DNA of 64,000 nt from Dictyostelium discoideum (GCA_000004695.1 CM000151.3:7488001-7552000); one strand, 5' to 3'; counted from the stretch's first letter, positions 32,053 to 36,563 are shown. The notes: a model not told the origin generated them from the sequence alone. Numbers and translations: made by a program.

Positions 32053-32346
32053 TAGAACTTGTTGTTGTTGATTTTCATCCTCATTGTTGTAAACTTTTAT
32101 TCGAAAATTTTTCTTCTTCATTCTCTTCATGTAAGAGTTCTAATTGGTCCATTTCATTTTGTAGAATTAAGAAAAACCAAATTGGGAGATTATGGGTGAA
32201 AAAATTGGTTTTTTCTAAAATATCATCAAAATTAATAAAAAAAATATGATTTCAGCTTTTTTTTTTTGAATTGGATAACGCAATTATTATTTGCTTCTCC
32301 TTGAGATGCTAGATCTCATTTTATTTTATTTTTTTTTTTTTTTTTT

Positions 32347-32616
32347 TTACAGGGTCTCTAAAAGAGGGGTTAGTTTACTTTTTTTTTTTTTTTTTTTTTG
32401 TTTCGAATTTTGAATTGTATTATTACTTTTGATTAAAACATCTTTTTTGTCCAAACTTTTTTCTAAATCTTTTTTTATTTTATCGTCTGGTTCGTGATTG
32501 ATGTTTATGACGTATTTGAATTGTTTTTTTTTTAATTGAGTTTTATCCACAATTTCGCTTATTTTTTGTAGGCATTTGTGTTGCTTAATATTTGTGGTGT
32601 TGTTTGTGAGTTTCAT
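32347..32616 (-). pseudogene. Truncated retrotransposon ORF1 5' fragment
   Basis: 89-aa ORF identical over about 65 aa to the ORF1 N-terminus (MKLTNNTTNIKQHKCLQKISEIVDKTQLKKKQFKYVININHEPDDKIKKDLEKSLDKKDVLIKSNNT), followed by unrelated sequence. Confidence 0.6.
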
Positions 32617-32647
32617 TTTATTTTCTTTCTATTTTTTATATTTTTCT

Positions 32648-32692
32648 TTAAAAAGTTAAAAATCTGGAAATTTTCTGATTAACTTGGGTTCC

Positions 32693-32760
<68 letters not shown>

Positions 32761-33094
32761 AATGAATACTTTTTATTGGAAAAAGGAATTTTTCAAAAAA
32801 AGGAATGGTGGTGGTGGTGTGTTTTTTTTCAACCGAATAATTTTTTGCTTTTTTTTGAAAATTTTGCTCACCAAAATTCTCAAACCGAAACACCAGGTTC
32901 TTTTTAATTAAACATCTTTTTTTTTCCAACCTTTTTTCTAAAAACTTTTTTAAATTATCGTCCGGGTTCGGAATGAAGGTTAAGCCGGAATTTGAATTGT
33001 TTTTTTTTTTTAAATGAGATTTATACACAAATTTGCCTATTTTTTGTAGGCATTTGTGTTGCTTAATATTTGTGGTGTTGTTTGTGATTTTCAT
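32648..33094 (-). pseudogene. Truncated, diverged retrotransposon ORF1 copy
   Basis: MKITNNTTNIKQHKCLQKIGKFVYKSHLKKK... shares the first 20 aa and the upstream leader with the full ORF1, then diverges and terminates. An A-module-like sequence lies at 32780-32900. Confidence 0.55.
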
Positions 33095-33136
33095 TTTATT
33101 TTCTTTCTATCTTTTTTATTTTTCTGATTAACTTTG

Positions 33137-33194
<58 letters not shown>

Positions 33195-33199
33195 TTATA

Positions 33200-33490
33200 G
33201 AAAGTACTGAGTGAATTATTGTATTTTTTGAGATGTTTAGGAAGTTCTATTGCGGGTGTTGATGATGATTTGTGACACCCCTTGTCCTGTTTTATCAATT
33301 GGTGCGTGGTGTGTTATTTTGTTTTTATATTGTTGATTTATTGAGTAAATTTTATTTGTTTTTATATTTGTTTCAGTTAGAAGTGCTGCGTCCAGCTTGT
33401 TGTTGTCTAAAACGGTGTTTATTATGCTGGCAGATTGGATGGTGTTGGATCCTTGGACGTTCCAAACACCTATTCTTATTGTGTTTTTCT
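33200..33490 (-). CDS. Retrotransposon ORF2 fragment (APE-type endonuclease N-terminus), truncated
   Basis: Minus-strand frame '...VWNVQGSNTIQSASIINTVLDNNKLDAALLTETNIK' resembles the L1/TRE ORF2 endonuclease start (..LNVRGLN...I...D....LQETH.K). It is interrupted at about 33130 by poly(T) and the next element copy. Confidence 0.45.
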
Positions 33491-34825
33491 TTATAGTTTT
33501 ATTTGGGGTAGATTTTTATCTACCTTTTGAAGTTTCTGGTTTATTTTGTCTTCTAACTGATCTTTACTTTGTTCGTTGTGTTGTTGGTCTTGTGTGTTTG
33601 TGGGGTTTTTTGATTTATTGATTTGTTTTAGAATTTCCTTGTTGAAGTTGTCTATATCTTCATCCATTTTTGTTTTTATGCTTTTTTGTCCATATTCACC
33701 CAATTTTGGTTTGACTGGTGTTTTGTTGGTCTTGTTTGTTTTGTCTTGTTGTTTCTTTTTTGGTGTGTTTAACAATTTACTTGGTGAATCGATAATTTTC
33801 GATGGTGTACCATAGGTTGGGCTGAAACTCATGATATGTTTTATTGGAGAGGAGAAGAACCATTGATTTGAAGGGATTGAAAGTGGGAATTCTATTTTTC
33901 TTATTGCATCAGTGTTTGGGCTGGTGAAGTCGAAGATATCATTTGCCTCTCTAAGTTTTTCTTCCGTTGTTAGTCCCTTTGTTTCGCCGTGTTGTTTTAT
34001 TGGTGTATTGTATGGAGATGGTGGTTCGATAGGTTTTTCTGATTTTGTTTTAATTTCTTGATTGTTTATCGATTGTGTATTGATCTCATTCTCTATTCTT
34101 GTTAGTTCATCTACGTTTTCTAGTGATGCTTCTATTACCTTTTGAGCTGTATCATCTAGGGCCATAAATGTTTTATCATTAGATGAGGATGTGATTGGTG
34201 GGATAATGATTGTTCTTTTTCCTTGTTTTGGTATTTGTTCTGATGTAGATTGTGGTTGTTGTTCATCTGATTGTTTTTTATTTTTGTTTTCTTCTTGATT
34301 TTCTGGTAATGAGGTTTGATCTCTCCATCCTTTGTTGGAGTGACCAATTAATGTTAGATTGTCTAGTTCAATGATAGTATCATATTCTTCTACGACTCTT
34401 TTCACTGTTTTGATAATTAGAGTTTCGCCTTTAATTTCAGATTTAATTAGTTTACATCCTTCATTTTCTATTACCCATTCTATTTCTGTGAGTGATTTAT
34501 ACCAATCGAAATCCGTATACATATTTTTTGGTCTTAGAGTGGTTATAAATTGTCCTTTTAATTCTGCATCGAACATATTTACAAAATAGATTACTGTACT
34601 AATACTGTCTGTGAGAATTTTGAATGTATTATTACTTTTGATTAAAACATCTTTTTTGTCCAAACTTTTTTCTAAATCTTTTTTTATTTTATCGTCTGGT
34701 TCGTGATTGATGTTTATGACGTATTTGAATTGTTTTTTTTTTAATTGAGTTTTATCCACAATTTCGCTTATTTTTTGTAGGCATTTGTGTTGCTTAATAT
34801 TTGTGGTGTTGTTTGTGATTTTCAT
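33491..34825 (-). CDS. Retrotransposon ORF1 protein (TRE5-like), full length
   Basis: 444-aa ORF. Basic/acidic charge-rich C-terminal half (KPKLGEYGQKSIKTKMDEDIDNFNKEILK...). The N-terminal 60 aa are duplicated in two truncated copies downstream. Confidence 0.65.
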   Translation of the reverse strand: MKITNNTTNIKQHKCLQKISEIVDKTQLKKKQFKYVININHEPDDKIKKDLEKSLDKKDVLIKSNNTFKILTDSISTVIYFVNMFDAELKGQFITTLRPKNMYTDFDWYKSLTEIEWVIENEGCKLIKSEIKGETLIIKTVKRVVEEYDTIIELDNLTLIGHSNKGWRDQTSLPENQEENKNKKQSDEQQPQSTSEQIPKQGKRTIIIPPITSSSNDKTFMALDDTAQKVIEASLENVDELTRIENEINTQSINNQEIKTKSEKPIEPPSPYNTPIKQHGETKGLTTEEKLREANDIFDFTSPNTDAIRKIEFPLSIPSNQWFFSSPIKHIMSFSPTYGTPSKIIDSPSKLLNTPKKKQQDKTNKTNKTPVKPKLGEYGQKSIKTKMDEDIDNFNKEILKQINKSKNPTNTQDQQHNEQSKDQLEDKINQKLQKVDKNLPQIKL

Positions 34826-34900
34826 TTTATTTTCTTTCTATTTTTTATATTTTTCTTTAAAAAGTTAAAAATCTGGAAATTTTCTGATTAACTTGGTTCC

Positions 34901-34952
<52 letters not shown>

Positions 34953-34955
<3 letters not shown>

Positions 34956-36405
34956 TCTTTTTTATATGAAAAATGAAATAATCAAAAAAAGAGATTGTTG
35001 TTGTTGTTTGTTTTTTTTCGATCTGATTATTTTTTGCTTTTTTTTGAAAATTTTGCTACGCAAAATTCTCAAAACGAAACAAATAATAAATTACAATAAA
35101 GTAAAAAGATGGCTTTTTAAGATAGTTTATTTATTTATTTATTTGTTTTTTAAGTCTTTTTTATATGAAAAATGAAATAATCAAAAAAAGAGATTGTTGT
35201 TGTTGTTTGTTTTTTTTCGATCTGATTATTTTTTGCTTTTTTTTGAAAATTTTGCTACGCAAAATTCTCAAAACGAAACAAATAATAAATTACAATAAAG
35301 TAAAAAGATGGCTTTTTAAGATAGTTTATTTATTTATTTATTTGTTTTTTAAGTCTTTTTTATATGAAAAATGAAATAATCAAAAAAAGAGATTGTTGTT
35401 GTTGTTTGTTTTTTTTCGATCTGATTATTTTTTGCTTTTTTTTGAAAATTTTGCTACGCAAAATTCTCAAAACGAAACAAATAATAAATTACAATAAAGT
35501 AAAAAGATGGCTTTTTAAGATAGTTTATTTATTTATTTATTTGTTTTTTAAGTCTTTTTTATATGAAAAATGAAATAATCAAAAAAAGAGATTGTTGTTG
35601 TTGTTTGTTTTTTTTCGATCTGATTATTTTTTGCTTTTTTTTGAAAATTTTGCTACGCAAAATTCTCAAAACGAAACAAATAATAAATTACAATAAAGTA
35701 AAAAGATGGCTTTTTAAGATAGTTTATTTATTTATTTATTTGTTTTTTAAGTCTTTTTTATATGAAAAATGAAATAATCAAAAAAAGAGATTGTTGTTGT
35801 TGTTTGTTTTTTTTCGATCTGATTATTTTTTGCTTTTTTTTGAAAATTTTGCTACGCAAAATTCTCAAAACGAAACAAATAATAAATTACAATAAAGTAA
35901 AAAGATGGCTTTTTAAGATAGTTTATTTATTTATTTATTTGTTTTTTAAGTCTTTTTTATATGAAAAATGAAATAATCAAAAAAAGAGATTGTTGTTGTT
36001 GTTTGTTTTTTTTCGATCTGATTATTTTTTGCTTTTTTTTGAAAATTTTGCTACGCAAAATTCTCAAAACGAAACAAATAATAAATTACAATAAAGTAAA
36101 AAGATGGCTTTTTAAGATAGTTTATTTATTTATTTATTTGTTTTTTAAGTCTTTTTTATATGAAAAATGAAATAATCAAAAAAAGAGATTGTTGTTGTTG
36201 TTTGTTTTTTTTCGATCTGATTATTTTTTGCTTTTTTTTGAAAATTTTGCTACGCAAAATTCTCAAAACGAAACAAATAATAAATTACAATAAAGTAAAA
36301 AGATGGCTTTTTAAGATAGTTTATTTATTTATTTATTTGTTTTTTAAGTCTTTTTTATATGAAAAATGAAATAATCAAAAAAAGAGATTGTTGTTGTTGT
36401 TTCTA
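34953..36405. repeat. Tandem 199-bp repeat, about 7.3 copies (TRE5-A A-module-like array)
   Basis: Identical 69-aa ORFs recur every 199 bp in the ORF track (34966, 35165, ... 36160). The unit begins 'aagtcttttttatatgaaaaatgaaataatcaaaaaaagagattgttgttgttgtttg...'. The array ends at '...gttgtttctatgatttcagct', 46 bp before the tRNA. Confidence 0.85.
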
Positions 36406-36450
36406 TGATTTCAGCTAAAAAATTTAAAAAAATTTAAAAAATATCAAAAT

Positions 36451-36522
36451 GGGAGATTAGTTAAGTGGTATAATGCTACCTTTGGGTGGTAGCGTCCTGA
36501 GTTCGATTCTCGGATCTCCCCA
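36451..36522 (+). tRNA. tRNA-Pro (anticodon UGG)
   Basis: GGGAGAT acceptor stem pairing with ATCTCCC. D-arm with GG. Anticodon stem CTACC/GGTAG with loop TTTGGGT (anticodon TGG). T-arm CTGAG-TTCGATT-CTCGG with a GTTCGATTC B-box. No encoded CCA. Confidence 0.85.
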
Positions 36523-36552
36523 TTCTTTTATTTCCTTGTGAATTTAATCGAG

Positions 36553-36563
36553 GGTTCGACTCT
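36553..36563 (+). promoter_or_regulatory. External B box (exB) downstream of the tRNA gene
   Basis: GGTTCGACTCT about 31 bp after the tRNA 3' end. It matches the B-box consensus GGTTCGANTCC. Dictyostelium tRNA genes commonly carry such an extra downstream B box. Confidence 0.5.

Follow-up and report, generated by a model that had tools for sequence, protein, structure and literature searches.

One TRE5-A insertion upstream of a tRNA-Pro(UGG) gene in Dictyostelium discoideum, with a probably chimeric interior in the AX4 reference

TRE5-A.1, formerly named DRE, is an autonomous non-long-terminal-repeat retrotransposon of Dictyostelium discoideum that targets tRNA genes, and TRE5-A and its tRNA-gene targeting have been studied for about 30 years in strain AX4. 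Here we describe one such element in a 64,000-nucleotide stretch of the D. discoideum reference genome (GCA_000004695.1 CM000151.3:7488001-7552000), referred to below as the window, whose positions serve as coordinates throughout. ARAGORN finds a single tRNA gene in the window, a tRNA-Pro(UGG) gene at 36451-36521 on the plus strand, and upstream of it lies a block of 4146 bp (32258-36403) that carries a 444-amino-acid (aa) open reading frame (ORF), ORF1, on the minus strand. The product is exactly the AX4 protein DDB_G0276975 of chromosome 2, annotated as a 'hypothetical protein' in protein databases. The original prediction, made from the sequence alone, was correct about the tRNA gene and took the block for a nest of TRE5-like fragments left by at least three successive insertions. 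Our own reading, to which we give a probability of roughly 0.8, is that the block is one TRE5-A insertion and that its interior in the reference is a chimeric, collapsed Sanger assembly. The features of the block and of its target are as follows.

32245-32257: left (3'-side) copy of the target-site duplication (TSD), TATGATTTCAGCT, 13 bp, exact match; junction identical in the AX2-type assembly
32258-32267, minus strand: 3' oligo(A) tail (T10 on the plus strand), read from the sequence; also in AX2
32268-32408, minus strand: full-length C-module of TRE5-A.1 type, the end of the 3' untranslated region (UTR), 141 bp
32347-32616, minus strand: short ORF1 start with residues MKITNNTTNIKQHKCLQKI as in the 444-aa ORF1, leader and long poly(A) upstream
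32409-32696, minus strand: 3' B-module (leader and first 208 nucleotides (nt) of ORF1), holding the 89-aa ORF at 32347-32616
32648-33094, minus strand: short ORF1 start, again with residues MKITNNTTNIKQHKCLQKI and with leader and long poly(A) upstream
32697-32759, minus strand: poly(A)63 directly upstream of the 3' B-module (Tandem Repeats Finder)
32760-33138, minus strand: suspect stretch B'-A', containing a 148-aa 'diverged ORF1'
33139-33196, minus strand: poly(A)58 between the ORF2 remnant and B'; same arrangement in TRE5-A.2 copies (L012-L017)
33197-33490, minus strand: ORF2 remnant with the TRE5-A.2 internal deletion, 294 bp
33491-34825, minus strand: ORF1, 444 aa, DDB_G0276975, an A.1/A.2 mosaic
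34618-34904, minus strand: 5' B-module (79-nt leader and first 208 nt of ORF1), 287 bp
34905-34952, minus strand: poly(A)48 between A-array and 5' B-module; same A-poly(A)-B order in the 5' UTR of L004
34953-36402, minus strand: A-module array, 7.3 units of 199 bp, the outermost partial
36403, minus strand: one extra nucleotide (C on the plus strand), a mismatch to the A-module consensus; identical in AX2
36404-36416: right (5'-side) TSD copy, 13 bp, adjoining the element 47 bp upstream of the tRNA gene
36451-36521, plus strand: tRNA-Pro(UGG), the RNA polymerase III (Pol III) target (ARAGORN); conserved in AX2 and wild isolates

Sixteen loci with the same ORF1 (L002-L017) were fetched from a long-read D. 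discoideum assembly (GCA_054883475.1), and the identities of the A-, B- and C-modules were scored by mapping segments of the window onto them. Full-length copies in this assembly read A(n)-poly(A)-B-ORF1-ORF2-poly(A)-B-C-oligo(A), with an ORF2 of 1047 aa that matches RVT_1, while the ORF2-deleted TRE5-A.2 copies read A-poly(A)-B-ORF1-294 bp of ORF2-poly(A)-shortened B-last 82 nt of C. In single elements a poly(A) of ~40-60 nt stands ahead of the 5' and the 3' B-module alike, and the poly(A)48 of the window is thus a canonical part of the 5' UTR and not the tail of another insertion. Identity of the window's 5' B-module to those of L002-L017 is 99-100%, that of its 3' B-module to the 3' B-modules of TRE5-A.1 copies 99.3-99.7%, and that of its C-module to the terminal C-modules of full-length TRE5-A.1 copies (L002-L011) 95-100%; its A-modules and those in L004-L010 are 100% identical. 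Tandem Repeats Finder describes the array as a 199-bp unit in 7.4 copies with 99% matches (34927-36402), its last templated base being 36402. Since arrays of 1.4 to 36.5 units occur in GCA_054883475.1, a 7-copy array is unremarkable by itself; multiple A-modules were reportedly described already by Marschalek (1992) and Glöckner (2001).

The complete ORF1 and the ~300 bp of ORF2 expected behind it are both present, ORF2 as a remnant in the -1 frame relative to ORF1 and overlapping its end. In this remnant the first 237 nt past the ORF1 stop (33254-33490), coding for the beginning of the endonuclease domain, are joined to the final 57 nt of the ORF2 region (33197-33253). Only nt 1-237 of it align in full-length copies; all 294 bp are 99.7-100% identical to TRE5-A.2 copies, and the breakpoint is shared with L012-L017. 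The N-terminal 200 aa of the full-length ORF2 homologue give a weak match to Exo_endo_phos (E = 5e-4, below the curated cut-off). At the other end, the 3' 87 nt of the C-module are predicted to fold into stem-loops (z = -3.6), and the C-module hairpin has been described as essential for retrotransposition (PMC3159450).

The element is TRE5-A, which is already known, and there is nothing new in the element itself. Its assignment is based on published architecture, every testable feature of which was found here. TRE5-A.1 follows the plan AB-ORF1/ORF2-BC, with an A-module of 200 bp that is the promoter, a B-module of 290 bp that sets the ORF1 start and has a second copy in the 3' UTR, and a C-module of 134-137 bp (PMC3159450); the modules in the window measure 199 bp (A), 287/288 bp including the ORF1 ATG (B) and 141 bp before the oligo(A) (C). 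TRE5-B and TRE5-C are rejected as they are without a 3' B-module (PMC3159450), whereas the window has one directly before the C-module. The published ORF1 protein is ~51 kDa, and ORF2, comprising endonuclease, reverse transcriptase and zinc finger, is reached by a -1 frameshift (PMC5911963); the same ORF1 is followed by the 1047-aa RVT_1 ORF2 in L002-L011, and by only 294 bp of ORF2 in the window itself. Integration takes place 47+/-3 bp upstream of a tRNA gene such that the element's 5' end points toward the tRNA gene's 5' end (PMC5391098). The window element ends at 36403 and the tRNA gene starts at 36451, leaving 47 bp, and with the element on the minus strand and the tRNA gene on the plus strand the A-modules lie on the tRNA side. 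The position- and orientation-specific signature, the TRE5 affiliation, and an array of 199-bp units ending 46-48 bp from the tRNA gene had all been proposed beforehand, and published position, head-to-head orientation, tandem A-modules and the 13-bp TSD bear them out. TSDs of TRE5-A are 10-16 bp long, and genomes without the element have a matching empty site (PMC9012585). The junction motif was rightly said to occur twice, with its left copy at 32245, but its right copy starts at 36404, not at 36401. Extra nucleotides have been reported at TRE5-A 5' junctions (PMC5391098), and the C at 36403 is probably non-templated.

Both TRE5-A subfamilies are represented in the block. With TRE5-A.1 it shares the 199-bp A-module, a 287-bp B-module at both ends, the full C-module with oligo(A), the 444-aa ORF1, an ORF2 in the -1 frame, the 47-bp head-to-head spacing and the 13-bp TSD, and its ends match the AX2-type ortholog with 0-1 mismatches; it departs from TRE5-A.1 in the ORF2 of the reference, which has only 294 bp, and in the A.2-type sequence of the distal two thirds of ORF1. 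TRE5-A.2 (AB-ORF1-BC) is a deletion derivative that is not autonomous and moves in trans with the help of TRE5-A.1; it has a 72-bp deletion over the 3' B/C junction that reduces the C-module to its last 87 bp (PMC3159450), and the copies at L012-L017 accordingly have a shortened B followed by only the last 82-87 nt of C. The window resembles these copies at 33197-34252, where the 3' part of ORF1 and the ORF2 deletion breakpoint are 100% identical, and in B', which carries the A.2-type leader deletion. It differs from them in its full-length B and C at the 3' end and in the A.1-type 5' 560 nt; the A.2 deletion at the 3' B/C border is seen only in the internal B' and not at the real 3' end of the element. 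We infer that the departures from TRE5-A.1 are due to assembly and not to the element.

The orthologous copy was retrieved from GCA_054883475.1, which we take to be strain AX2-214, through its flanking genes (L018 and L019 merged). Compared with the window, its left flank carries 8 substitutions over 9958 bp and its right flank 10 over 14965 bp (~0.07%). The TSD, the break point of the outermost A-module, the extra C and the oligo(A) are identical in the two strains and, because both junctions are identical, the AX2 and window copies derive from the same insertion event. Their interiors differ. AX2 has 3.4 A-modules, two B-ORF1-ORF2 units and then B-C, 10.9 kb in total; its two units of B, ORF1 and full ORF2 are identical over 4885/4885 bp, and the copy is pure A.1-type throughout. 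The A-array has the same outer end in both strains, with 3.4 units in AX2 vs 7.4 in the AX4 reference. Between the 3' B-C end with its junction in the window and that of AX2 there is one mismatch. This sole difference falls at 32606-32608, in the second codon of the 89-aa ORF (MKI -> MKL).

Diagnostic sites were aligned between the window, the AX2 ortholog, six A.1 copies and seven A.2 copies. From the B-module to 34343 the window has the A.1 state at 11 of 11 sites, one of them a T that is common to the AX2 orthologous units and to only 2/6 other A.1 copies, and from 34252 to 33411 it has the A.2 state at 12 of 12. There is a single switch from A.1 to A.2, between 34343 and 34252 and hence inside ORF1, which is A.1-type at 34825-34343 and A.2-type at 34252-33491. 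On the A.1 side, 34343-34904 shows 0 mismatches to the AX2 ortholog and 9-10 to A.2 copies; on the A.2 side, the 1056 bp of 33197-34252 match A.2 copies at three other loci without a difference (100% identity) and show 11 mismatches when set against the AX2 ortholog.

Beyond the poly(A)58 the sequence changes character. B' (32893-33138) is an A.2-type shortened 3' B-module that continues into the first bases of an A.2-type C-module, and A' (32760-32892) corresponds to the 3' 130 nt of an A-module, joined to B' between ...GACCCTGT and TTCG... to give the junction sequence ...GAACCTGGTGTTTCGG... Identity to consensus is 88% in B' and 82% in A', and 99-100% in the rest of the element. The first 100 nt past the poly(A) are nearly perfect (79/80 alignment columns), and identity falls with distance from it. 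Across 32760-33138, 38 of the 44 mismatches (86%) copy the preceding or following base, where ~22 are expected and none of 5000 simulations reached this number; a control for natural divergence, ORF1 against the ORF1 of a related species, gave 98 neighbour copies among 211 mismatches, at chance (102 expected). As judged from these mismatches, such a spectrum indicates degraded base calling and not mutation. The B'/A' junction is absent from every other locus fetched, and the whole 32760-33138 stretch from the AX2 ortholog.

Three or more independent TRE5 insertions at one Pol III-defined site, with later ones truncating earlier ones, would account for three ORF1 starts that each stand behind a poly(A), with long T runs on the plus strand (poly(A) on the element strand) ahead of all three leaders. 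One tRNA gene can indeed be hit repeatedly, and a new copy on top of an existing TRE5-A.2 has been described (PMC9012585). Three loci of the long-read assembly with two stacked elements each, next to tRNA-Val (L002), tRNA-Thr (L003) and tRNA-Lys (L017), served as positive controls. In each of them the TSD occurs three times (beside the tRNA gene, between the elements and distally), and the stacked members each end in a C-module and oligo(A) before the next starts with an A-module. Genuine stacks, these three and that of Fig. 1D of PMC9012585, thus have three TSDs and an A 5' end and a C/oligo(A) 3' end of each member's own; the window has neither. TATGATTTCAGCT occurs exactly twice in 64 kb (chance expectation 0.14; none of 100 shuffles reached two), the pair flanks the whole 4146-bp block, no third copy was found in the window, and no internal junction of C-module, oligo(A) and A-module was found in the window element. 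The poly(A) tracts are rejected as tails of separate insertions, since they precede every B-module in single TSD-bounded elements. Likewise, a poly(A) followed by a leader and an ORF1 start is how a B-module normally appears, so that neither of the extra ORF1 starts marks a separate copy. The prediction was right that they share leader and poly(A) with ORF1, but they are 3'-truncated, keeping the first ~66-69 codons, and not 5'-truncated as it had them. Furthermore, the middle 'diverged copy' is the stretch with base-calling-type errors that AX2 lacks, and the AX2 ortholog shares both outer junctions. Successive insertions are therefore a most improbable account of the locus. In two wild isolates (L020 and L021) the tRNA-Pro gene and homologous flanks are present with a diverged, unduplicated spacer and no element, and for this reason the insertion is specific to the laboratory lineage.

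For the mosaic itself, the reference might be correct as it stands, an AX4 A.1 copy having been partly converted by A.2 through ectopic recombination or gene conversion, with a B-module rearrangement that left the B'-A' scar and an unequal exchange that took the A-array from 3.4 to 7.4 units. The repeats of the B- and A-modules lend themselves readily to unequal exchange, the tandem B-ORF1-ORF2 units and variable A-arrays of AX2 show that such rearrangements happen, and the one clean breakpoint in ORF1 is what a crossover would leave. However, the spectrum of the 380-bp B'-A' stretch is unlike natural divergence, and the stretch is flanked on either side by a homopolymer of ~60 nt, a context in which the quality of Sanger reads drops. 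With the rest of the element at 99-100% to consensus, an island diverged by 12-18% is not due to age, and the perfect identity of the A.2-type part to A.2 copies at other loci also speaks against this account, which we regard as improbable. A partly real AX4 sequence, in which, over a few decades of separate culture in the laboratory, the A-array went from 3.4 to 7.4 and the interior was exchanged with TRE5-A.2 while AX2 duplicated B-ORF1-ORF2, is unlikely too, if a little easier to entertain. Alternatively, reverse transcriptase could have jumped between A.1 and A.2 RNAs through their shared B-module at integration and produced a chimeric cDNA. One TSD pair does surround the mosaic, and A.2 RNA is mobilised in trans by A.1 proteins (PMC3159450), so that both RNAs meet the same enzyme. 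Template switching leaves the neighbour-copy errors unexplained, and it is rejected, as a very remote prospect, on the evidence of the AX2 descendant of the same event: because that copy, with its identical junctions, is pure A.1-type, the chimerism cannot date from integration.

We therefore return to one insertion with a misassembled interior. A single TRE5-A would have integrated in the NC4 laboratory lineage, 47 bp upstream of tRNA-Pro(UGG) and with its 5' end toward the tRNA gene. As the mechanism is understood from the literature, ORF1 protein would contact TFIIIB upstream of the tRNA gene, the ORF2 endonuclease would nick the target, reverse transcription would be primed at the C-module/oligo(A) 3' end, and second-strand cleavage would yield the 13-bp TSD and the one extra nucleotide at the 5' junction; in the element, A-modules act as the (plus-strand) RNA polymerase II promoter and the duplicated B-module carries the ORF1 start. 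The nest-like look would then have two sources, namely the canonical layout A(n)-poly(A)-B-ORF1-ORF2-poly(A)-B-C and a non-authentic interior in the AX4 Sanger reference. Only the parts anchored in unique flanks would be authentic; at the 3' end these are the C-module and the 3' B-module, and at the 5' end the A-array, the 5' B-module and the initial 480 nt of ORF1. The interior may have been filled with reads that belong to TRE5-A.2 copies at other places and with the poor tails of reads, false joins arising through the repeated B-module. The original thus collapsed would have been a much longer structure, which in the sister strain takes the form of a tandem dimer of full-length TRE5-A.1 (10.9 kb). 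Uncertainty also extends to the number of A-modules (7.4 vs 3.4).

Several points weigh against this explanation. That assembly and not biology caused the mosaic interior is deduced from a sister strain and from sequence signatures rather than from AX4 reads or quality values, and the sister strain is identified as AX2-214 by assembly statistics (PMC12745789 Table 1) and near-identical flanks rather than by a label. The dimer in AX2, whose two units are perfectly identical, could be a product of the assembler. Given that AX2 and AX4 have been kept as separate laboratory lines for decades and that TRE5-A is active, a real difference in the array, or between monomer and dimer, is possible. The direction of neighbour copying is not uniform either, with mostly the next base copied in B' and mostly the previous base in A'; the mixed direction is compatible with a meeting of two read tails, without proving it. 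A literature search on misassembled repeats in AX4 returned nothing usable, and in the supplement of PMC5391098 tRNA genes and read counts are listed, but no structure for the DDB_G0276975 copy.

Two further features of the window lie outside the element.

23920-26640: ORF of 906 aa
36550-36565, plus strand: second B-box-like motif, GAGGGTTCGACTCTCG, 28 bp downstream of the tRNA gene; conserved in L020 and L021

External B boxes are known for Dictyostelium tRNA genes (PMC5911963), and the motif at 36550-36565 is probably one of them. About 110 bp upstream of the real tRNA gene in all strains is a tRNA-Pro-like fragment, GGGAGATTAGTT[A/G]AGTGG (window 32186-32205, L020 12131-12150, L021 12191-12210), which matches approximately the first 18 nt of the gene, is degenerate in AX4 and appears to be an old, partial copy of the tRNA 5' end. 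The left neighbouring gene is, after splicing, exactly CRTP1 (DDB_G0276943), and a chloride-channel gene lies on the far side of the locus. The ~1.2 kb between it and the TRE5-A insertion (30922-32150) contain FNIP-repeat-like ORFs; this stretch has no counterpart in L020 or L021, where ~200 bp of unrelated sequence take its place, and in the AX2 annotation it is fused to CRTP1 in a 751-aa product.

Some observations were also made on the comparison copies. At L007-L009 (GCA_054883475.1 CM142511.1, 3017681-3044797), at least four head-to-tail B-ORF1-ORF2 units with a period of 4.89 kb lie upstream of another tRNA-Pro(UGG) gene, behind a 36.5-copy A-array (7.3 kb). Unless these repeats were made by the assembler, TRE5-A.1 apparently amplifies locally by unequal exchange via its duplicated B-module. 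The A-arrays of L002-L018 are mostly n + ~0.5 units long, and of the 18 uncut arrays, 15 have an outermost partial unit that begins at phase 96-123, a 28-nt window of the 199-bp unit. This suggests a fixed transcription start inside the A-module, with each transcript losing half a module; if so, arrays must re-expand to retain a complete promoter. A related element in Dictyostelium cf. discoideum (GCA_054859235.1; L001 8001-13156) has an ORF1 protein 66% identical to that of the window, while its B-module-like ORF1 start and its ORF2 start are ~90% identical to the window at the DNA level; the B-module region is far better conserved between the two than the remaining ORF1. No tRNA gene was found within 8 kb of that element.

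Should the AX4 sequence be partly real after all, TRE5-A loci would be fast-evolving recombination hotspots between sister laboratory strains. Newer long-read assemblies differ from the Sanger reference in showing B-ORF1-ORF2 units in tandem and A-arrays that reach 36 copies. As it stands, caution is needed with the DDB_G0276975 copy, which in the AX4 reference appears to be an A.1/A.2 chimera with low-quality sequence and an unverified A-module count, and studies that draw on the Sanger reference for TRE5-A structure, subfamily counts, 'nested insertions' or ORF1 variants may be misled.

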